A DNA stretch of 64,000 nt from Nitrosopumilus sp. (GTDB lineage Archaea; Thermoproteota; Nitrososphaeria; Nitrososphaerales; Nitrosopumilaceae), in assembly GCA_965197525.1 (NCBI GenBank), contig OZ240211.1, forward strand, positions 1,440,001-1,504,000, in the 5' to 3' direction. A program made the position numbers and the translations under genes. Positions 16,866 through 48,009 of this stretch are shown here, piece by piece (the stretch's first letter is position 1; every line of letters begins with the position of its first letter). The notes beneath the pieces are model-generated. The model was not told where the DNA came from. It saw nothing but the letters and a program-made list of their open reading frames with translations, and did not search any database.

Positions 16866-17013
16866 ACCCTCCTCCTAGTATCTATGTGATAGGCTGACCC
16901 CTAAATCGACATGGGCTTCGCGCCCTTGTGCATGAATGGGGGGGGGGGGGAGAGGAGGAGGATCCGAGCTGCTGTGTTCCTAGGCTTCGCGCCCTGATAG
17001 GTAATTGCAGCTT
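16866..17013 (+). ncRNA. Candidate IS110 bridge RNA / structured non-coding left end
   Basis: 13-nt hairpin cap GGCTTCGCGCCCT occurs twice (16914-16926, 16983-16995), each inside a stem plus internal loop. Also CCTCCTCCT 16868-16876 pairs with AGGAGGAGG 16953-16961, and GAGCTGC 16966-16972 pairs with GCAGCTT 17007-17013. Confidence 0.5.
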
Positions 17014-17055
17014 CCGGTCTGTCAGATGAATCCCAAAGGAGGTGAAAATAAAGGA

Positions 17056-18129
17056 TTGACAATAATAGGAACGAAAAAGATAGGAACGAAAAGTGTAGGA
17101 ATAGACATCGGTAAGAGGAGATGTATAGTGTGTATTATGAATGAAGATGGCGCCGTAATGGAGAGAACAGAATATGATAACACGTTTGAAGATGCTACAA
17201 AATTTGCTAAAAAGATAAAACAAGAATATGGAGAGTGCAAAGCTGCATGTGAAACAACCGGTAACATGTGGATAAAAACATTTGAGGCGTTTGAGAGTCA
17301 GAACATACCAATCAAACTAACAAACACATTCAAGATGAAGATAATATCAGAGACTAGTGTAAAGACTGATATTATTGATGCACGCAAGATTGCCGATTTG
17401 GTAAGAGTTGACATGATACCAAGATGCTATGTTGCGCCTGCTGACATACGAGATAACAGACAGCTATTAAGGCACAGGATTAGTCTGGTCCAAGACAGAA
17501 CAAAGGTGATTAATCATGTTCGGAATCTGCTTGACAAGTATGATATCAAAATAGGTGGATCAGAAATACACTCAAAAAAGTCATTGAAACAACTTGCAGA
17601 CACCAATCTTCGTGGAGATAACGATCAGTTCATGCTAAGACAATGCGTCAGACAGATACAGTATCTGAATGATGAGATAGAACATACAGAAGAAAAGATA
17701 GCACAACAAGCTTCAAAAAATGACTATGCACAGATTCTACCTAGCATGACAGGAATAGAGATATTTTCAGCCATGCTTATCGCATCAGAGATTGGAGATA
17801 TCTCAAGATTCAACACTGCAAAACAGCTAGTGTCATGGGCAGGCATGTGTCCACGAGTGTACCAATCAGGTAATACGACACATCATGGAAGAATAAAAAA
17901 AGATTCAAACAGACGAGTCAACTGGATAATGATTCAGGATGCCAACACTGCAGTACGTCATGATGGTATAATGAAGAGATTTTACGAGCAGGTCAAACAA
18001 AGACATGGCGGCAATCATCCAATTGCAATAACACATGTTGCAAACAAGATGATTACGATAATCTGGAATATGTTGACTGCCATAACCACGTACTCTACCA
18101 AAAGTAACGATGTATCAAAGAGAGCTTAA
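17056..18129 (+). mobile_element. IS110-family transposase (DEDD recombinase)
   Basis: VGIDIGK, ACETTG, KTDIIDA (DEDD) and C-terminal VSWAGMCPRVYQSG (catalytic Ser region). SD-like GGAGGTGA precedes TTG 17056. The last codons look frameshifted (KVTMYQRELKKISDAQ* in another frame). Confidence 0.95.
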
Positions 18130-18692: not shown

Positions 18693-18694
18693 TT

Positions 18695-19754
18695 AAGTCT
18701 TTGCAATTGCTTTTCTGAACATATACTGTTCAATATTATGATTGAATGTAGCGGTTCTTAGATATATCATTGCGGCTCGTGCACGGTCACTAACATGTTC
18801 ATGGTGTTCATACATGAAAGGTTGAATCTTTAACTGGTGCCAACATTCTTCAATTGCATTAAATTCAGGACATCCTGTAGGCAAATACATTATTCGCAGT
18901 CTAGAACTGTTTGCTTTTACAAATTTTTTAAACTTTTTTGTTTTATGTTGGGGTGCTGCATCCATTACAATGGCTACCTTGTCAGATAGTTCCAATAGTT
19001 TTTTAACAAATTTGAGAAACGTCGGATCGTTGAATTTTTTTTTCTGTAAAAAATATTGATGTGAGTCTGATATTGCACCATAAATTACACGTCTCTGATG
19101 ATCTCCAAAATAAACTCGGAGTATTTTTTGACCCACCGGCGACCATGGATCGCGCTTTGTGACATAGTCATGCATCAATATTGATTCATCCTGTACATAC
19201 AGCTCAAAACCGTCCCGTTTTACGCATGAAATCCACCATTTCAGGGATTTTTGCCACTCTTCTATCTGTTCACTAGATGCCTTGTGTTTGTGTGTGGAAT
19301 CCGGGTACCTTTGGAGTAAAGTTATGACGACGCAATATGTCACGTATTCCAGATTCGGTGTATTTTACTCCTGTATCTTTTTTTATTTTATATACAAGCT
19401 GCTTTGGAAAAATACCGTTTTTGACATTTGTTAAAAATTCTGTAATCTTATGATTGGCTATTTTTGGCGGGCGTCCAGATCTTGGTTTCTCATACAATCC
19501 TACAACTCCAAATTCTTTAAATCGCATAACCCAATTTTTAATTGTGTTGTAAGATTTGTAAAACAGCTGTGCGATTGTTGAAATCGTTTCATCTTCCTCT
19601 ACGACATTTAACACTGCAAGCATTCGTTCTTTTGCCTTTGTGTTTAATTCCCTCTTATATACACATATTAATTCCACATTCTGGTTTTCCACGATGGGCG
19701 ATAAATGTTTCAAGCTATAAATGTTTCTAGTGTTTTTGAAAATTGCAAAGACTT
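18695..19754 (-). mobile_element. IS630-family element, transposase split by a +1 frameshift
   Basis: Perfect 14-bp terminal IR AAGTCTTTGCAATT (18695-18708 / 19741-19754). HTH part 19273-19713 (YEKPRSGRPPK); DDE part 18693-19343 (QDES, VMDAAPQH, PEFNAIEECW). The stop codon uses the terminal TA. Confidence 0.92.
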
Positions 19755-20333: not shown

Positions 20334-23300
20334 ATGAATACATTAAGAATTCATCATACTATGACAGTCATGGCCATTGTGGTAGTGACTGTATCTTTGT
20401 TACTTTTCCAGTACTATGATGTCAGTTTTGCGTCTGCCTATATGACTGACCCTGTGATCACGATAACTTACAGCCCCCCCCTCCACCATACACCTGTAAC
20501 GGTAACTACCTCAGAGATACAGCAGTCGGCAGCCAGTTTTCTGAACCGTGAGTACGGGCGAATCGACGTACTCAACCCGCAGTCCTATCCTGTAGTGGGC
20601 GGGGAGTGGACGATAAACTTTAGGACATACGGTACCCATAACCTAACAATCTCTGTAATAAACGGCACCACGTTTGGGGACTCTTCTCCTGACGACGTGG
20701 GGTTTGTGGGGGTATTGTGCGGCAACGACTCCATACTGGATGCTACAGCACATGATGGGATCATTACGTTTGAGGACTATCAGTGCGACGGCATCGCAAG
20801 CCTCGTGCTATCGGTTCACACCCCTGGCATACACGACATACATCTAAGCTTTGGTGCAGATACTGCGTACGCATCAAACAACGCGTATCCAAACTCCGTA
20901 GTGGAGATAAACAGCTCCACTGCAAACGGTCCCACGCTATCAGACTTTGACCGTTTCGGCTTCTCCGTTACTCCCATAGGCGACCTTGACGGCGACGGGG
21001 TGACAGACCTTGCAGTTGGTGCTGCTCAAGATGACGGCGGCGGATCAGACCGCGGCGCAGTACACATAATGTTTATGAATACAAACGGCACGGTAAACAG
21101 CACAGTAGAGATAAACGACTCCACTACAAACGGTCCCACGCTATCAGACGATGACTTTTTCGGCAGATCCGTTGCTGCCATAGGCGACCTTGACGGCGAC
21201 GGGGTGACAGACCTTGCAGTTGGTGCTGATCGAGATGACAACAGCGGATCAAACCGCGGCGCAGTACACATAATGTTTATGAATGCTGACGGCACGGTAA
21301 ACAGCACAGTAGAGATAAACGACTCCACTGCAAACGGTCCCACGCTATCAGACAATGACCGTTTCGGCGTCTCCGTTACTCCCATAGGCGACCTTGACGG
21401 CGACGGGGTGACAGACCTTGCAGTTGGTGCTAATCGAGATGACGACGGCGGGCTAGACCGCGGCGCAGTACACATAATGTTTATGAATACAAACGGTACG
21501 GTAGACAGCACAGTAGAGATAAACAGCTCCACTGCAAACGGTCCCACGCTATCAAACAGTGACTATTTCGGCTTCTCCGTTGCTGCCATAGGCGACCTTG
21601 ACGGCGACGGGGTGACAGACCTTGCAGTTGGTGCTCATCTAGATAACGGCGGCGGATCAAACCGCGGCGCAGTACACATAATGTTTATGAATACCGACGG
21701 CACGGTAGACAGCACAGTAGAGATAAACGACTCCACTGCAAACGGTCCCACGCTATCAGACGATGACTATTTCGGCGTCTCCGTTACTCCCATAGGCGAC
21801 CTTGACGGCGACGGGGTGACAGACCTTGCAGTTGGTGCTTATCAAGATGACGGCGACGGCGGATCAGACCGCGGCGCAGTACACATAATGTTTATGAATA
21901 CTGACGGCACGGTAGACAGCACAGTAGAGATAAACGACTCCACTGCAAACGGTCCCACGCTATCAAACATTGACTATTTCGGCTTCTCCGTTGCTTCCAT
22001 AGGCGACCTTGACGGCGACGGGGTGACAGACCTTGCAGTTGGTGCTTTTCTAGATGACAACGGCGGATCAGGACGCGGCGCCGTACATATAATCTTCATT
22101 AATGACATGAGAACTGCCGGAAACGGCTCTGTTGACAGCACAGTAGAGATAAACGACTCCACTGCAAACGGTCCCACGCTATCAAACAATGACCGTTTCG
22201 GCGTCTCCGTTACTCCCATAGGCGACCTTGACGGCGACGGGGTGACAGACCTTGCAGTTGGTGCTAGTCGAGATAACGAGCGGCGGACGAGACCACGGCA
22301 CCGTACACATAATGTTTATGAATGCTGACGGTACGGTAAACAGCACAGTAGAGATAAACGACTCCACTGCAAACGGTCCCACGCTATCAAACGATGACTA
22401 TTTCGGCATCTCCGTTGCTTCCATAGGCGACCTTGACGGCGACGGGGTGACAGACCTTGCAGTTGGTGCTTATGGAGATGACGACCGCGGATCAAGCCGC
22501 GGCGCAGTACACATAATGTTTATGAATACAAACGGCACGGTAAACAGCACAGTAGAGATAAACGACTCCACTGCAAACGGTCCCAGGCTATCGAGCAGTG
22601 ACTATTTCGGCTTCTCCGTTGCTTCCATAGGCGACCTTGACGGCGACGGGGTGACAGACCTCGCAGTTGGCGCTTATCAAGACGACGGCGGCGGATCAAA
22701 CCGCGGCGCAGTACACATAATGTTTATGAATATGGACGGCACGGTAGACAGCACAGTAGAGATAAACGACTCCACTGCAAACGGTCCCACGCTATCAAGC
22801 TTTGACAATTTCGGCATCTCCGTTGCTTCCATAGGCGACCTTGACGGCGACGGGGTGACAGACCTCGCAGTTGGCGCTTATCGAGATGACGACGGCGGCG
22901 GATCAGACCGCGGCGCAGTACACATAATGTTTATGAATGCTGACGGCACGGTAGACAGCACAGTAGAGATAAACGACTCCACTGCAAACGGTCCCACGCT
23001 ATCAAGCAATGACCGTTTCGGCGTCTCCGTTACTCCCATAGGCGACCTTGACGGCGACGGGGTGACAGACCTCGCAGTTGGTGCTCATCAAGACGACGAC
23101 GGCGGATCAAACCGCGGCGCAGTACACATAATGTTTATGAATGCTGACGGCACGGTAGACAGCACAGTAGAGATAAACGACTCCACTGCAAACGGTCCCA
23201 CGCTATCAAACAGTGACTATTTCGGCGTCTCCGTTGCTTCCATAGGCGACCTTGACGGCGACGGGGTGACAGACCTTGCAGTTGGTGCTAGTCGAGATAA

Positions 23301-26300
23301 CGACGGCGGACCAGACCGCGGCGCCATCAATGTCATATATCTTGACAAAGAGGTACTGGTCCGTGCCGTATCCTCTACAACCGCAGACGGTACCTACGGA
23401 TCAGGAGATACAGTAGACATTACCATCAAATTCTCAGAACCAGTCACCGTAACTGGGACACCTCAACTCGCACTTGATACCAATCCTTCAAGGCAGGGCA
23501 ACTATTCATCAGGCTCAGGCACTGACACCCTTACCTTCAAGTACGAGGTACAGACTGGAGATACATCTGCAGATCTCCAATATGTTTCAGAGAACCCATT
23601 GATGCTGGTGGAGGGAGTGTCGACTGTTACTGCCCTAAAAAGCCCGAGTGAGGATGCTGTCCCTACACTCCCGGATCCTGTAGTAATGTTTGACTTTAAC
23701 CCTCCAGGCGCATTCGGATCCCTTGGGCAAAACAAAGATATTGTAATTGGTACCACCGCCACCAACCAGCCCCCAACTATCAGCAGCATAACCGGCGACA
23801 CTACAATCAACGAGGGCGCATCAGGCACGCTCACGGGTACTGCCTCCGATTCTGACGGCACCATATCCTCGTACCTGTGGAGCGTGGATGATACGTCTAC
23901 TATCACGATCACGACTGGCGATGCGGCTATCCTGCAATACACTGCATCACAGGTATCCTCGAATACCCAAGTTACATTTACCCTCACTGTTACCGACGAC
24001 GACGGGGCCACGGCATCTGCCACCTACGATGTCACGGTAAACAATGTGCCAGTCCCCAACCAGTCCCCAACTATCAGCAGCATAACCGGCGACACTACAA
24101 TCAACGAGGGCGCATCAGGCACGCTCACGGGTACTGCCTCTGACTCTGATGGTACAATATCCACATACGCGTGGAGCGTGGATGACACATCTGTTATTAC
24201 GATAACGTCCGGTAACGCAGCAACCCTGCAGTACACTGCGTCACAGGTATCCTCAAACACCCAAGTTACATTTACCCTCACTGTTACTGACGACGACGGG
24301 GCCACGGCTTTTGACACCTACGATGTCACGGTAAACAATGTGCCAGTCCCCAACCAGTCCCCAACTATCAGCAGCATAACTGGCGACACTACAATCAACG
24401 AGGGCGCATCAGGCACGCTCACGGGTACTGCCTCTGATTCTGACGGTACAATATCCACATACGCGTGGAGCGTGGATGACACATCTGTTATTACGATAAC
24501 GTCCGGTAACGCAGCAACCCTGCAGTACACTGCGTCACAGGTATCCTCGGACACCCAAGTTACATTTACCCTCACTGTTACCGACGACGACGGGGCCACG
24601 GCTTTTGACACCTACGATGTCACGGTAAACAATGTGCCAGTCCCCAACCAGTCCCCAACTATCAGCAGCATAACTGGCGACACTACAATCAACGAGGGCG
24701 CATCAGGCACGCTCACGGGTACTGCCTCTGATTCTGACGGCACCATATCCTCGTACCTGTGGAGCGTGGATGACACATCTGTTATTACGATAACGTCCGG
24801 TAACGCAGCAACCCTGCAGTACACTGCGTCACAGGTATCATCTGACACCCAAGTTACATTTACCCTCACTGTTACTGACGACGACGGGGCCACGGCTTTT
24901 GACACCTATGACGTCACGGTAACCGATGTGCCAGTTCCCACGGTAACAGACACCACTCCGCCCCGCGTTGCCTTTATTGTTGACAGGACAGTAGAGATAA
25001 ACGACTCCACTGCAAACGGTCCCACGCTATCAAACAGTGACCGTTTCGGCGTCTCCGTTACTCCCATAGGCGACCTTGACGGCGACGGGGTGACAGACCT
25101 TGCAGTTGGTGCTGCTCGAGACGACGACGGCGGACTAGACCGCGGCGCAGTACACATAATGTTTATGAATACAAACGGCACGATAAACAGCACAGTAGAG
25201 ATAAACGACTCCACTGCAAACGGTCCCACGCTATCAAGCAATGACCGTTTCGGCGCCTCCGTTACTCCCATAGGCGACCTTGACGGCGACGGGGTGACAG
25301 ACCTTGCAGTTGGTGCTTATCAAGATAACGGCGACGGCGGATCAGACCGCGGCGCAGTACACATAATGTTTATGAATACTGACGGCACGATAAACAGCAC
25401 AGTAGAGATAAACAACTCCACTGCAAACGGTCCCAGGCTATCAGACGATGACAATTTCGGCAGATCCGTTGCTTCCATAGGCGACCTTGACGGCGACGGG
25501 GTGACAGACCTCGCAGTTGGTGCTTATCAAGATGACGGCGACGGCGGATCAGACCGCGGCGCAGTACACATAATGTTTATGAATACTGACGGTACGGTAG
25601 ACAGCACAGTAGAGATAAACGACTCCACTGCAAACGGTCCCACGCTATCAAGCAATGACCGTTTCGGCGCCTCCGTTACTCCCATAGGCGACCTTGACGG
25701 CGACGGGGTGACAGACCTCGCAGTTGGTGCTCAGGGAGATGACGACGGCGGATCAGACCGCGGCGCAGTACACATAATGTTTATGAATACTGACGGTACG
25801 GTAGACAGCACAGTAGAGATAAACAGCTCCACTGCAAACGGTCCCACGCTATCAAACAATGACAATTTCGGCAGATCCGTTGCTTCCATAGGCGACTTTG
25901 ACGGCGACGGGGTGACAGACCTCGCAGTTGGTGCTTATCAAGATGATAACGGCGGATCAGACCGCGGCGCAGTACACATAATGTTTATGAATACTGACGG
26001 CACGGTAGACAGCACAGTAGAGATAAACGACTCCACTGCAAACGGTCCCACGCTATCAGACAGTGACAAGTTCGGCGCCTCCGTTGCTTCCATAGGCGAC
26101 CTTGACGGCGACGGGGTGACAGACCTTGCAGTTGGTGCTTATCGAGATGACGACGGCGGGCGAGACCGCGGCGCCATCAATGTCATATATCTTGACAAGG
26201 AAGTAGAGCAAAACAAAGATATTGATCCCACCGCCCCCACGGTAACAGACACCACTCCGCCCCGCGTTGCCTCCATACTGCGTGGTACCCCTCTAGCTCA

Positions 26301-29300
26301 ATCCACAACTGATACCACCTTGGTGTTTGCTGTCACGTTTGATGAACCGGTAACCAACGTGGATGCTGCCGATTTTACAGTAACGGGCACCGGCACCGGC
26401 ACAATATCTGGCGTATCAGGTTCCGGTGCATCATACCGGGTAACAGTCGCAGTAGATAATGTTGGAACCATCGGCTTGGATATCGCACAAAACCACGACA
26501 TACAGGATACCGCAACCAACCGTTTGGCCAACCTGGCACCTACCGGCTCTGATCAGACCTACACAGTCACGGTAACAGACACCACTCCGCCCCGCGTTGC
26601 CTTCATTGTTGACAGGACAGTAGAGATAAACGACTCCACTGCAAACGGTCCCACGCTATCAGACTTTGACCGTTTCGGCGTCTCCGTTACTCCCATAGGC
26701 GACCTTGACGGCGACGGGGTGACAGACCTCGCAGTTGGTGCTAGTCGAGATGACGACGGCGGATCAGACCGCGGCGCAGTACACATAATGTTTATGAATG
26801 CTGACGGTACGGTAGACAGCACAGTAGAGATAAACAACTCCACTGCAAACGGTCCCACGCTATCAGACGATGACTATTTCGGCGCCTCCGTTGCTTCCAT
26901 AGGCGACCTTGACGGCGACGGGGTGACAGACCTTGCAGTTGGTGCTCATCGAGATGACGACGGCGGATCAGACCGCGGCGCAGTACACATAATGTTTATG
27001 AATGCTGACGGCACGATAAACAGCACAGTAGAGATAAACGACTCCACTGCAAACGGTCCCACGCTATCAAACAATGACCGTTTCGGCGTCTCCGTTGCTT
27101 CCATAGGCGACCTTGACGGCGACGGGGTGACAGACCTCGCAGTTGGTGCTTATCAAGATGACAACGGCGGAGAAGACCGCGGCGCAGTACACATAATGTT
27201 TATGAATGCTGACGGCACGATAAACAGCACAGTAGAGATAAACGACTCCACTGCAAACGGTCCCACGCTATCAGACGATGACTTTTTCGGCGCCTCCGTT
27301 ACTCCCATAGGCGACCTTGACGGCGACGGGGTGACAGACCTTGCAGTTGGTGCTCATCGAGATGACGACGGCGGATCAGACCGCGGCGCAGTACACATAA
27401 TGTTTATGAATACTGACGGCACGGTAGACAGCACAGTAGAGATAAACGACTCCACTGCAAACGGTCCCACGCTATCAAACAATGACAATTTCGGCAGATC
27501 CGTTGCTTCCATAGGCGACTTTGACGGCGACGGGGTGACAGACCTTGCAGTTGGCGCTCATGGAGACGACGACGGCGGATCAGACCGCGGCGCCGTACAC
27601 ATAATGTTTATGAATGCTGACGGCACGGTAGACAGCACAGTAGAGATAAACGACTCCACTACAAACGGTCCCACGCTATCAGACGATGACTTTTTCGGCG
27701 CCTCCGTTGCTTCCATAGGCGACCTTGACGGCGACGGGGTGACAGACCTCGCAGTTGGCGCTTATGGAGACGACGAGGGCGGATCAAGCCGCGGCGCCAT
27801 CAATGTCATATATCTTGACAAGGAAGTAGAGCAAAACAAAGATATTGATCCCACCGCCCCCACGGTAACAGACACCACTCCGCCCCGCGTTGCCTCCATA
27901 CTGCGTGGTACCCCTCTAGCTCAATCCACAACTGATACCACCTTGGTGTTTGCTGTCACGTTTGATGAGCCGGTAACCAACGTGGATGATGCTGACTTTA
28001 CAGTAACAGGCACCGGCACAATATCTGGCGTATCAGGTTCCGGTGCATCATACCGGGTAACAGTCACAGTAACCGCTAGTGGAACCATCGGCTTGGATAT
28101 CGCACAAAACCACGACATACAGGATGCTGCAACCAACGGTCTGACTGACCTGACAGTGATCGGCTCTAATGAGACCTACACAGTCAACCGGTTACCCGTA
28201 CTGAATAATATCTCACCGCAGACTGGAGATGAGCTTACACTCCTCACATTCACTGCTGAAGCAACTGATCCTGATGATAACGATGCCCGGACATACTCCC
28301 TTATCGAGCCGATACCTGACGGTGCCGCGATGGATACCAACACCGGAGTGTTCTCATGGACGCCAACTGAGGAACAGGATGGCCGTCACACCATAACCGT
28401 ACAGGTCTCTGATGGTAACGGAGGCACAGACTCGCAAAACGTCACAATAACTGTAACTGAGGTAAATCAGAATCCACGACTTGATCCCATAGGTGCACAG
28501 ACCATAGATGAGACAGACACGCTTAGGTTTACTGCAACAGCCCATGACGTCGACATATATCAAGGCTCTCCTAACTCTTTGAGATTCTCACTTGACGGGG
28601 ACATGCCACGTGGTGCATCAATCACCCGGGAAGGCTCGTTCTCTTGGAGGCCTGACCAGTCCCAGGACGGCGTACACTCCATTAATGTGACCGTCTCGGA
28701 TGGTAACGGTGGCACAGCATCTGAACTGGTATCAGTTACAGTAAATGACATAGCTCCACGTCTTGTATCTGTACGGGGCTCTGGCTCTTCTATAACGCTG
28801 ACATTCTCTGAGCCAGTCAAAATCAATGGAGCAGGCCTCAACGGATTTACAGTATCCTCTTCTTCTGGTAGTACAGTCACAGTGGAATCCATCACCGGAA
28901 ATGGCACAAACACCCTTACGTTACTACTTGACGGTTCACTGTCTCGTGGGGACACGCTCTCATACGACAGCGGTACAGGCGATGTTGTAGACGAGTCAGG
29001 CAAACCTTTGGAATCATTTGTTGATGCGGCCATACTGCTCAAGTCCAAAAAGTCAGGTACCGCACCACCGCCATCTGTGGATACACTTGAGATAAACGGC
29101 CAGAGTTACAATGTTCAAAACAGGGTAAACCATCATGCCACGCCGCTGGAGGTTGCAGTAGACCAACAACCCATATCCATGAGTTTTACGGCACACGACA
29201 GACTTGACATACTCTACTTTGCAGTATACCTGAACCTGCAAGATGATGACATATCATACACGAACAGTGATACATACGTGGAATACAACAGAGGCCAAAC

Positions 29301-29859
29301 CAACATAGTTGATCCTCATAACCTGTTCTCAGATGCCTCCATCACTATATCAACTGACCCTGATGATCGCAATAAAAAGACAGTCGCACTTGATATCACG
29401 TTTGCAGATGCGATAGGGAATACCAACATGGTAATCAGAACTTGGAACGCAGACCGTCAGTCTTCAATAGTCATAATAGTTGATGCGCTAAACATCATAC
29501 CCTCAAAAGTAGATCCAGAGCCCCAGGCAACAACGGAGGCAGACCCAGAGCCCCAAGTAGCAGAGGCGAACCCAGAACCCCGGTCACCTGCTGCAGTACC
29601 TGATAATCCAGAACCTGTGATTGAAACTTTTGATGATGACTCAGACTATGACCGTGCATTGCTTGTACTGCGCATGTGGTCTGGATTTGAGTCTGAGGTG
29701 GCAGACGACGGCCAACTGTTAGATGTCATGGGCCTGACTCACATGGGAGCAGACATACCTGCCTGGGTCATGACTGATCTTGCACCACTAGTGGTAAAAG
29801 GACTGATAACCCTAGATGAGTTCAGGGTTGCGTTACAGTACGTGATGGGGAATACCTGA
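20334..29859 (+). CDS. Giant multidomain surface protein/adhesin (about 3174 aa if repaired), interrupted by one extra base at 22280
   Basis: Signal-like N-terminus; 24 FG-GAP repeats (FGxSV..IGDLDGDGVTDLAVGA); 4 PKD/Ig-like repeats; 2 Ig-like TTPPRVAS domains; 2 cadherin-like domains; SwmB-like segment; C-terminal IPAWVM..GLITLDEFRVALQYV thaumarchaeal anchor-like motif. ORF pieces 20334-22328 and 22252-29859 join at GATAACGAGCGGC versus the normal GATAACGACGGC. Confidence 0.9.
20892..23355 (+). repeat. FG-GAP tandem array 1: 12 units of 204-207 nt
   Basis: 68-aa unit; unit 2 starts 21096 and unit 3 starts 21300 (period 204); unit 6 has a divergent end (HIIFINDMRTAGNGSV). Confidence 0.95.
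23764..24939 (+). repeat. Four tandem 294-nt (98-aa) PKD/Ig-like repeats
   Basis: Units start 23764, 24058, 24352 and 24646; NQxPTISSITGDTTINEG..TLTVTDDDGA. Confidence 0.95.
24985..26205 (+). repeat. FG-GAP tandem array 2: 6 units
   Basis: Same 204-207 nt unit; ends GAINVIYLDKEV. Confidence 0.95.
26614..27828 (+). repeat. FG-GAP tandem array 3: 6 units
   Basis: Same unit; part of a roughly 1.63-kb higher-order duplication with array 2. Confidence 0.95.
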
Positions 29860-46320: not shown

Positions 46321-48009
46321 CTAATAATACTGATGCATCTGCCTCTGCTCTAACCCCTCTTGCTCAAAGTGGTTATGCGACTTGCCTCCGTCATGATGTG
46401 CATGAACTGTTCCGTCAATATGGCAATGTGTGTTATCAATCAAATCCTTGATAAACACATCATCCACGTTTAGCAGCATGTTGACAGTCTCAACTGCAGT
46501 TATCAGGACTTGCTGTTTTACAACTGCGGTCTCCATAATTTGATGGAGCGACATGTCAGACACTTTTCTTGTAGCAGCGTCTATCCCGCACCACTTGACG
46601 TTGCTATTAGACAGCGTTTGGAGTTGTGTAAATGTGTCAATTACATCCATTCCTATATTTTGGGCCAGTGTCAACGGTATCTGCTCAAGGGCGCTTGCAA
46701 ATCTTTGCATTCCGATCTGCTCCTTGCCGGGAACAGACAATGAGTGATCTTTAATCTCTTGCGCAATCAGCCATTCGACAGAGCCTGCACCGCGTACAAC
46801 AAATGGACTTTGAATAAAATTGCGTAGCACATAAAATGCGTTCAAGACATTCCTGTGGAATTCGTCAAGATAGCGCTTAGAGTTTGCCCTTAACAACAAA
46901 GTTACGGATTTTGGATTACTGTCATTGCTGCTCTCAATGAAGACCATGCTGTCACCCCCGACAGTTCTCTGATAGACATTCTTTGCAAGACCTAACTCAG
47001 CATCCGATATTTCATGTATACTCTTGCATGTTTTCGCGGCAGTTGCTTTTTCCAGCCACCACAGATCATTGTACTTTACACGACGCATCGAGATGATGCC
47101 ATGTTTTGCAAGTTTGGTTTGAACATACTCACTTACGCCCTTTCTTGACACCACTACGTTGGCTCCAGAGTCTACGATGCACCCTACTAGCGCAAGCAGG
47201 TCTGTATCCTCTTGGTCAATGAATGAGCCCATCTGGCTGGGGGAGGTAATCTCTATCTGAGATTCGGTCCTTGTCCTCATGGTCTCCAGTGGATCATTTA
47301 GCAGTAAAATTTTGGCATCAATAATGCTTTTGGGCATCGCAGAGCTGTCTATTGTCTTGTCAATGACTATGCCCCTGACTAGTTCGGTGTCAAGAATGCT
47401 ACCAAGCTTTTCCTCAATCTTTATGTCATCCACACTGATCTTTCCGTTCTGCAGATCAGCTACGCTACACACCGCATCAACGATGGTCTCAACGATTTGT
47501 TCAGGATTATCATGCAAGTCAAATATTGCTTTTCCTCCAAGACACGTAACTAGCAGACGCCTCATCATTTCCCTGTCTGTCCGGTTTGCCACCGTCTTAA
47601 TTTTTTCCAATACATTCAGGGCATATTCAAGGCTTTGCTCGTATGACTTTACAATTGCGGCTACAGGAAATTGCATTTTTAACAGCGTCTCGGCTTGGCC
47701 GATCAGACTACCTATCAGGACAGATGCGGATGTCGTGCCATCTCCAACATGGGTGTCAACGATATTTACAGCGTCCACAACAGACTTGCCTGCGGGATGA
47801 AGAACATCTGTCTTTCTTAAAAATGCACCGCCGTGGCCTGTTATCGTCTCTTCCCCAAGTATGTCAATATACATTTTTTCCATGCCGCGCGGCCCCAGAG
47901 ACGTCTTTATGATATCAGTGACAAGTCTTCCTGACATCAGGTTGTATTTTTGTGAGTCCTGCAGTCCAACACGTGAAATATCACCATCGAGAAGATCAGG
48001 ATATTTCAT
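46321..48009 (-). CDS. Divergent thermosome-like chaperonin with His-rich C-terminal tail
   Basis: TSLGPRGMEKM, GDGTTS and IDKTI motifs; ends HCHIDGTVHAHHDGGKSHNHF..MHQYY. Confidence 0.9.
   Translation of the reverse strand: MKYPDLLDGDISRVGLQDSQKYNLMSGRLVTDIIKTSLGPRGMEKMYIDILGEETITGHGGAFLRKTDVLHPAGKSVVDAVNIVDTHVGDGTTSASVLIGSLIGQAETLLKMQFPVAAIVKSYEQSLEYALNVLEKIKTVANRTDREMMRRLLVTCLGGKAIFDLHDNPEQIVETIVDAVCSVADLQNGKISVDDIKIEEKLGSILDTELVRGIVIDKTIDSSAMPKSIIDAKILLLNDPLETMRTRTESQIEITSPSQMGSFIDQEDTDLLALVGCIVDSGANVVVSRKGVSEYVQTKLAKHGIISMRRVKYNDLWWLEKATAAKTCKSIHEISDAELGLAKNVYQRTVGGDSMVFIESSNDSNPKSVTLLLRANSKRYLDEFHRNVLNAFYVLRNFIQSPFVVRGAGSVEWLIAQEIKDHSLSVPGKEQIGMQRFASALEQIPLTLAQNIGMDVIDTFTQLQTLSNSNVKWCGIDAATRKVSDMSLHQIMETAVVKQQVLITAVETVNMLLNVDDVFIKDLIDNTHCHIDGTVHAHHDGGKSHNHFEQEGLEQRQMHQYY

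Follow-up and report, generated by a model that had tools for sequence, protein, structure and literature searches.

FG-GAP propeller blades with a uniform scaffold and variable loop residues in a five-gene family of Nitrosopumilus

Ammonia-oxidising archaea rank among the ocean's most abundant cells, and little is known of how their surfaces recognise particles, partners and viruses. In a 64,000-nucleotide stretch of a Nitrosopumilus sp. genome (assembly GCA_965197525.1, contig OZ240211.1, positions 1,440,001 to 1,504,000; hereafter the window), a single giant gene on the + strand, split into two open reading frames (ORFs), encodes a secreted protein of ~3,180 aa, as judged from the ORF listing and translation, in which 24 near-identical FG-GAP blades differ from one another at a small set of loop codons. 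The question raised by this locus is how repeats can be kept so alike in their DNA and yet be so different at these few positions. A sequence-only reading of the window had described the pattern as antibody-like combinatorial hypervariation and had ascribed it to gene-conversion shuffling under diversifying selection. The observation is confirmed by the analysis presented here and the interpretation is partly supported: the probable explanation, in our judgement, is repeat shuffling by gene conversion combined with selection for loop diversity, in a secreted propeller family of five genes and 72 blades.

Loop codons on a uniform blade scaffold

Anchoring on the VEIN motif recovers all 24 of the 204-nt units reported before, with starts from 20901 to 27640 and a 12 + 6 + 6 grouping, and Tandem Repeats Finder places 204-nt arrays at 20900-23324 and 24982-27797. 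With codons numbered from the V of VEIN, the per-codon tables reproduce exactly the third-base counts that had been given for loops A and B. Codon 15 (position A1) is GAC in ten units, AAC in nine and AGC in five, with a terminal C in 24/24; codon 16 (A2) is AAT, GAT, AGT, TTT or ATT, with a terminal T in 24/24; codons 18 (A4) and 42 (B1) each end in T in 23 of the 24 units; and codon 43 (B2), which is CGA, CAA, GGA or CTA, ends in A throughout (24/24). The quoted pairings of the two loops are present as well (DDDF with DR, HR and YG; SNDR with HQ, YQ and QG), and further variable codons lie beyond those listed at the time, at positions 5, 8, 21, 24-25 and 45-50. That all 24 A/B combinations are distinct is also correct, but it carries no weight as evidence of reassortment, because random pairing of the 15 A and 14 B haplotypes would already yield 23.2 distinct combinations out of 24.

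The window contributes one-third (24 blades) to a larger pool. Searches of the complete genome (2.21 Mb in one contig, 98.99% complete) returned 95 matches with a single unit as the query and 96 with a unit profile (nhmmer), 72 of which are near-identical (88-96% nucleotide identity) and form twelve modules of six blades distributed over five genes (Table 1); 48 further copies of the same blade are thus found outside the window. Across the 72 blades, the eight codons that we define as the hot set (15, 16, 18, 21, 24, 25, 42 and 43) occur in 67 distinct combinations, and codon 16 alone has eleven alleles, T-ending in 70 of the 72 blades.

To quantify the contrast between loops and scaffold, we used the Nei-Gojobori proportions of nonsynonymous (pN) and synonymous (pS) differences. 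Among the 24 window units, the hot codons show a pN of 0.42 and a pS of 0.035, against 0.004 and 0.048 in the other codons; for all 72 blades the corresponding values are 0.38 and 0.05 in the hot set, and 0.007 and 0.066 in the rest. An a priori class of 16 columns, chosen as variable in 51 distant homologues (six-blade modules), gives a pN of 0.225 and a pS of 0.035 in the 72 blades, and the family-conserved columns give 0.014 and 0.083. The resulting pN/pS ratios of ~9-12 at the hot codons and ~3-6 at the a priori columns are both what the proposed diversifying selection would lead one to expect. The fixity of the third base, pointed out earlier, calls for no explanation of its own: variation at this base of the hot codons is as low as at silent sites in the rest of the blade (pS 0.035 versus 0.048).

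The consensus of the 51 distant modules is variable at the same columns as the hot set (LxxxDxFGxSVAxx and GAxxDDxGGxxRG). At other Nitrosopumilaceae loci, DNA identity between the blades within a propeller is 64-79%, with a pS of 0.3-0.5, a hot pN of 0.44-0.56 and a scaffold pN of 0.07-0.25. Since the same columns vary in the relatives, the position of the variable residues is a property of the family, and what is peculiar to this genome is that everything outside the variable residues has been made uniform. A second blade subfamily of 18 units, ~75% identical (C1:43101-46762; coordinates with this prefix refer to the genome contig), results from a recent triplication of a six-blade module, visible as a 1224-nt higher-order repeat with copies 97-99% identical, and is fused downstream of six main-subfamily blades in one 2041-aa ORF. 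Its six distinct blades have a hot pN of 0.31, a scaffold pS of 0.136 and a scaffold pN of 0.035, and at codon 21 all their alleles are NNA instead of NNC. The same pattern has arisen here on a different scaffold and with another fixed third base, as expected when a codon copied not long ago gathers changes at its positions 1-2. The remaining six units of the genome are distant ones (C1:175352-176566).

Blade exchange and strain turnover

Distances between blades are flat: whether a blade is compared with others of its module, with the same position in another module or with another locus, pS amounts to 0.055-0.067 and hot pN to 0.35-0.38, even for genes 1.4 Mb apart. Such independence of blade location is not that of a simple duplication hierarchy. 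Furthermore, silent polymorphisms of the scaffold show all four gametes at 29 of 55 site pairs, including pairs separated by 9-21 nt; silent alleles at columns 111, 120, 132, 163 and 208 are common to several loci, and those at columns 84, 90, 93 and 145 are locus-specific. Linkage among hot codons is restricted to near neighbours (15-16-18, 18-21-24-25 and 42-43), and loops A and B are statistically independent. Together, the flat distances, mosaic silent sites and short-range linkage argue that short tracts are converted and repeats unequally exchanged, both inside each of the five genes and from one to another, and it is the first two that bear out the shuffling proposed from the window.

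Turnover of the blades can be followed in a close strain, represented by three proteins from one metagenome assembly (P0003, P0004 and P0007) and compared at the protein level. Its orthologues share the unique N-terminal domain at 189 of 190 residues and have the same flanking genes as in the window. It differs from the window genome at 40 of the 336 positions in the hot class, at 11 of 126 in the minor variable class and at 4 of 1428 in the scaffold, which corresponds to 12% of the hot and 0.3% of the scaffold positions. Unchanged blades number 22 of 42, and the differences are concentrated in a few blades, some of which differ at 3-6 positions, with a variance-to-mean ratio of the per-blade differences of ~2.3 by hand calculation. 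Three of the eleven changed loop-A segments occur verbatim in another blade of the window genome, and in P0004 the window's first twelve blades are joined to six blades that reside here in the gene at C1:39204-40425. Judged from this comparison, blade change is current, patchy and focused on the hot positions. At the same time, 88% of the hot residues are inherited position by position, which points to germline evolution rather than programmed variation, and no sign of within-cell or rapid programmed variation was found in the sequence comparisons. The term antibody-like combinatorial hypervariation therefore overstates the case for blades whose identities are inherited by position.

Predicted variable face and competing explanations

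To place the hot codons on the fold, we modelled residues 900-1335 of P0002 (ORF part 2) with AlphaFold2 from a 51-sequence alignment. The model (mean predicted local distance difference test score, pLDDT, 93.9; predicted template-modelling score, pTM, 0.92) has 24 strands in six sets of four, and its best Foldseek matches are the integrin alpha propellers (alpha-V, alpha-4 and alpha-5; probability 1.00), with template-modelling scores of 0.56-0.60 to these seven-bladed targets. In phmmer searches the blades align to the Ca2+-binding repeats of integrin alpha-4. The DxDxDGxxD loop between strands 1 and 2 reads D-L-D-G-D-G-V-T-D in 24/24 blades, with L29F in two, and aligns to the DLNADGFSD loop of integrin alpha-4, consistent with a metal site predicted from sequence. 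The seven blades of integrins are not found: all 12 modules have six, and relatives have six or twelve.

According to the predicted strand boundaries (Table 1), hot codons 15, 16 and 18 immediately precede strand 1, codons 42 and 43 immediately follow strand 2, and codon 21 lies near the top of the innermost strand. In propellers, loops 4-1 and 2-3 are found on one face and loops 1-2 and 3-4 on the other, and integrins are said, in work by Springer in 1997 and by Xiong and colleagues in 2001-2002, to bind their ligands through the face that bears the 4-1 and 2-3 loops. By this topology, codons 5, 8, 15, 16, 18, 42, 43 and 46-50 are predicted to lie on the face opposite the Ca2+ loops, so that the earlier suggestion of variable loops on a single propeller face holds for most hot positions. 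The hot face would bind a ligand, presumably a carbohydrate or a surface protein.

We propose that the gene product may be a giant secreted, calcium-binding adhesin or receptor of Nitrosopumilus whose working parts would be four six-bladed FG-GAP (integrin-alpha-like) propellers, and that the five-gene family would draw on a common stock of 72 blades, each of 68 aa and nearly identical. The blades would be kept alike by concerted evolution, through frequent conversion of short tracts and unequal exchange both inside each of the five loci and from one locus to another, from which some eight to twelve loop residues per blade, mostly in the 4-1 and 2-3 loops opposite the Ca2+ loops, would escape. 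New nonsynonymous loop changes would be favoured and then spread and recombined by the same exchange, so that each propeller would present its own binding surface while the scaffold stays constant; the hot spots would be driven by selection and not by local hypermutation.

Several points weigh against this proposal. The eight hot codons were picked after the data had been seen, and the a priori set gives the lower ratio of ~3-6; gene conversion moreover invalidates tree-based tests, and the pN/pS values are plain proportions rather than the output of a recombination-aware codon model. Sequence alone cannot separate selection from site-specific hypermutation. The assignment of the variable face derives from strand order and from knowledge of integrins, that is, from topology rather than measured geometry, and variable codons 24-25 and 60-61 point towards the Ca2+-loop face. 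Finally, the window gene is frameshifted and so is one paralogue (at two sites, by deletions in A-runs), which could mean either that some copies are decaying or that the assembly contains indel errors, and short-read polishing, if it was used, could make some of the mosaicism artefactual.

Among the alternatives, the diversity could be old and the scaffold new: the loop differences would be ancestral, and conversion would later have homogenised all but the residues protected by purifying selection, with no positive selection at present. Such a history would account for the variability of the same columns in every relative at a similar level (the hot pN of 0.44-0.56 given above) and for the similar loop types retained by the first blades of different genes (xxDRFG[VF]SVTP), and the conversion that it invokes is clearly active. 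Ancient codons preserved in this way would nevertheless be expected at the pS of 0.3-0.5 seen in the relatives, whereas the third positions of the hot codons match other silent sites in their uniformity (pS 0.035-0.05), and a 40-fold excess of differences at hot over scaffold positions between two very close strains argues for present-day turnover. We consider this history unlikely.

Much less probable still is local hypermutation of the loop codons without a reverse transcriptase, for example through error-prone repair of heteroduplex mismatches during conversion, with selection acting only as a filter. The hot codons are just where heteroduplexes rich in mismatches would arise, and both the large pN/pS excess and the clustering of between-strain differences within single blades could be explained in this manner. 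However, a local mutator would not spare the third positions of the hot codons, which are not elevated, and the alleles are few and common to many blades (at codon 18, CGT in 28 blades, TAT in 13 and AAT in 12), which fits a small number of mutations spread by conversion. To our knowledge, no local hypermutation mechanism of this kind has been described in archaea.

The frameshifts invite a further explanation. Alignment of the unit tails locates an additional base at ~22280-22281 in blade 7 (GAG-C-GGC), which breaks the reading frame; the close-strain orthologue P0004 reads ...GASRDNEGGRDHGAVHIMFMN... intact across the same point, and the extra base may be genuine, turning the gene into a pseudogene, or may stem from faulty assembly. 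In the paralogue at C1:983683-984292, two blades have each lost one A of an AAA run at the same unit position (GTAAAC to GTAAC), resulting in two -1 frameshifts that may reflect either misreading of the homopolymer during sequencing or the transfer of one deletion to a second blade by gene conversion. Three frameshifts among 72 blades, two of them single-A losses typical of long-read error, would be in keeping with an artefact in which near-identical repeats were mis-assembled or cross-polished into chimeric blades and false mosaics, and short-read contigs (Logan) of public runs do fragment the region into pieces of 150-680 nt, each of which fits several blades. Yet the genome is one 2.21-Mb contig, the arrays of 1.2-2.4 kb are bounded by unique domains and can be spanned by long reads, and proteins from a separately assembled metagenome have their blades in the same order and agree in most of the hot residues. 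In addition, three public runs contain about half of the sampled 31-mers, with more than half of the placed pieces at least 99% alike, and an artefact cannot produce variation limited to the first two codon positions of just those columns that vary in the family itself; we hold it to be very improbable as a source of the pattern.

A diversity-generating retroelement (DGR) or another retro-mutagenic system writing NNY codons is hardly credible and was rejected, in agreement with the sequence-only reading: the hot codons do resemble AAY randomised to NNY, but the single-contig, 98.99%-complete genome has no RVT_1 (PF00078) reverse transcriptase match (3 of 14 control genomes have one) and no template repeat or non-coding copy (96/96 nhmmer unit matches lie inside coding arrays), variation shows no preference for adenine (A 7/32, C 10/37, G 7/36 and T 6/30, or 22%, 27%, 19% and 20%), only one of nine third-position adenines varies, AAC codon 9 is invariant in 72/72 blades and GAC codon 17 in 71/72, seventy-two propeller-blade targets match no known DGR, and the hot residues are stably inherited between strains. 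For genome scans, the case carries the caution that codons of an NNY-like pattern need not be the work of a DGR. Silent cassettes of the pilE/pilS, vlsE or tprK type were also rejected, as 72/72 blades lie in long reading frames and isolated cassettes are lacking; the N-terminal signal and domain are common to four of the five genes, which speaks against a single expression site.

Analogues, gene layout and relatives

The closest analogue, by comparison of their properties, is the nwd/HNWD family of Podospora anserina, which includes het-d and het-e and of which the window family is not a member. That family comprises ten genes; their WD40 repeats undergo concerted evolution both inside a locus and across loci, and each repeat has four positively selected positions on the interaction surface (Paoletti, Saupe & Clave 2007, PMC1805685; see also Chevanne et al. 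2010, PMC2873952). Both are multigene families (ten genes there, five here) of near-identical propeller repeats in concerted evolution within and between loci, and in both reshuffling makes new combinations; the positive selection of a few interaction-face positions per repeat in the fungal family would have its counterpart here in the hot columns (pN/pS of 3-12, with a face assigned by topology). Unlike the fungal proteins, which are intracellular NLR-type NACHT receptors with demonstrated allorecognition, in a eukaryote in which repeat-induced point mutation (RIP) adds to the mutation supply, the archaeal blades are FG-GAP rather than WD40, have no NACHT/STAND fusion and belong to a secreted giant predicted adhesin. 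The evolutionary mode would accordingly be a known one, and new, by this analogy, in its propeller superfamily, domain of life and cellular location.

Recently amplified propellers are themselves well documented (Afanasieva et al. 2019, PMC6805158; Pereira & Lupas 2022, PMC9218822). Passages of the latter survey describe highly repetitive propellers with blades from >60% up to 100% identical, archaeal and bacterial FG-GAP/alpha-integrin propellers among them, and put the median blade number of VCBS-like propellers at six; neither 'hypervariable' nor 'gene conversion' occurs in the passages searched, and the 72-blade pool over five genes, the inter-locus exchange and the strain-level turnover go beyond what they describe. 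Our literature search found no paper combining FG-GAP with Nitrosopumilus.

Other likenesses are more partial. Integrin alpha propellers share the FG-GAP family, provide the best structural and sequence match and carry the DxDxDGxxD loop between strands 1 and 2, but their blades number seven and have diverged, and their partner is a beta subunit, whereas here four propellers per chain each consist of six near-identical blades and, unlike in integrin alpha, every blade has the Ca2+ motif. Transcription activator-like (TAL) effectors likewise have tandem repeats that are near-identical even in DNA, with two adjacent hypervariable residues, recombined for new specificities; their units are 34-aa helical repeats that read one DNA base each in an open solenoid, as opposed to 68-aa beta blades in rings of six, and no evidence was found in the window blades for a code of one blade per ligand unit such as that of TAL repeats. 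With DGR targets the family shares an NNY-like codon spectrum at ligand-binding residues (the ligand face being assigned here by analogy) on a constant scaffold, and it differs in having no reverse transcriptase, template or adenine specificity, in its many targets instead of one or two, and in its fold, a propeller where DGR targets have a C-type lectin or Ig fold.

If repeat shuffling with selection on the loops is the correct explanation, a textbook eukaryotic route to recognition diversity, in which a pool of repeats evolves in concert while residues of the binding face are positively selected, would be at work in an archaeon and on an integrin-type propeller. The blades could then be regarded as a natural library of variable loops on a constant scaffold, and their module-wise expression could reveal ligands. 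A bolder possibility, which we consider rather doubtful, is that the five genes amount to a recognition repertoire that is encoded in the germline and evolves fast, in which the 72-blade library would continually supply new six-blade sites against changing targets such as viruses, neighbouring cells or particle glycans, perhaps assisted by local error-prone repair during conversion; if true, it would be a prokaryotic, extracellular counterpart of the repeat repertoires of fungal and plant NLRs.

Of 24 other Nitrosopumilus genomes searched, only one gives a match, with 77% identity over a fragment that lies at the end of a contig, and several complete Nitrosopumilus genomes have no match with this blade query. 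At 45-73% identity, the blade type occurs in metagenomes and in Planctomycetota, Actinomycetota and other phyla; among metagenomic proteins of 157-501 aa, none matches the blade subfamily at more than 73% identity. Two contigs, L020 and L019, binned as Planctomycetota and Saccharibacteria, carry blades 69-70% identical to the archaeal family, which could reflect either horizontal transfer or mis-binning.

Table 1. Features of the window gene and its surroundings, the gene family and the blade unit. Locations are window positions unless marked C1 (genome contig) or codon (position in the blade unit).
Feature	Location	Strand	Description
IS110-family transposase	17005..18129	+	upstream of gene; Pfam DEDD_Tnp_IS110, Transposase_20
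IS630-like transposase	18693..19713	-	two overlapping ORFs (HTH, DDE_3; Pfam), immediately upstream of gene
ORF part 1	20334..22328	+	664 aa: signal-peptide-like N-terminus, ~190-aa N-terminal domain, blades 1-7 up to the frameshift
ORF part 2	22252..29859	+	2535 aa, remainder of the giant protein
Blades 1-12	20901..23370	+	two tandem six-blade FG-GAP modules
Four PKD/K319L-like Ig domains	23762..24940	+	294-nt repeats, 94% alike (Tandem Repeats Finder, Pfam)
Blades 13-18	24991..26220	+	six-bladed propeller; module used for the structure model
Linker domain	26221..26619	+	EQNKDIDPTAPTVTDTTPPRVASILRG...; recurs after the next propeller (translation)
Blades 19-24	26620..27843	+	six-bladed propeller
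He_PIG / Big_9 / cadherin-like Ig domain	28183..28458	+	best stretch; second copy next (Pfam)
C-terminal 120 aa	29497..29856	+	Pro/Glu-rich spacer and ~70-aa conserved tail
Five genes of the main blade subfamily	C1:39204-40425, 46764-48004, 924578-930294, 983683-986841, and the window gene		
Strand 4	codons 65-68 and 1-3 of next unit		AlphaFold2 strand boundaries
Loop 4-1	codons 4-18		AlphaFold2 strand boundaries
Strand 1	codons 19-27		AlphaFold2 strand boundaries
Ca2+ loop	codons 28-35		AlphaFold2 strand boundaries
Strand 2	codons 36-41		AlphaFold2 strand boundaries
Loop 2-3	codons 42-51		AlphaFold2 strand boundaries
Strand 3	codons 52-59		AlphaFold2 strand boundaries
Loop 3-4	codons 60-64		AlphaFold2 strand boundaries

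Within the giant protein (Table 1), a signal-peptide-like hydrophobic stretch that ends in FASA, as read off the translation, precedes an N-terminal domain shared at 93-96% with three paralogous genes. The Pfam FG-GAP family (PF01839) scores 168 bits over 7 stretches in ORF part 1 and 377 bits over 17 stretches in part 2, against a cut-off of 22.1 (E = 9e-116), and the only domains that Pfam identifies in the protein are FG-GAP, PKD, He_PIG, Big and cadherin-like. The junction of the two tandem six-blade modules is marked by a 15-nt insertion within blade 6 (IIFINDMRTAGNGS). The PKD-repeat region (23762-24940) has only 95% protein identity to the copy of the related strain, from which it seems that the PKD repeats exchange too. 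The ~130-aa linker domain (EQNKDIDPTAPTVTDTTPPRVASILRGTPLAQSTTDTTLVFAVTFDEPVTNVD…) stands behind each of the last two propellers, at 26221-26619 and 27844-28240, and is present in three tandem copies in the related strain's P0004.

The C-terminal tail (~70-120 aa; …LRMWSGFESEVADDGQLLDVMGL…LDEFRVALQYV) has no Pfam match and recurs, by tblastn against the genome, at at least 10 loci with 42-96% identity; judging from this recurrence, it may be a common sorting or anchoring tail of large surface proteins. Finally, the gene has a G+C content of 49-54%, compared with ~35% in its surroundings, and a G+C content at third codon positions (GC3) of 0.52-0.55, compared with a median of 0.35 for the ORFs of the genome; together with the transposases upstream, this composition would be compatible with an island of foreign or mobile origin.

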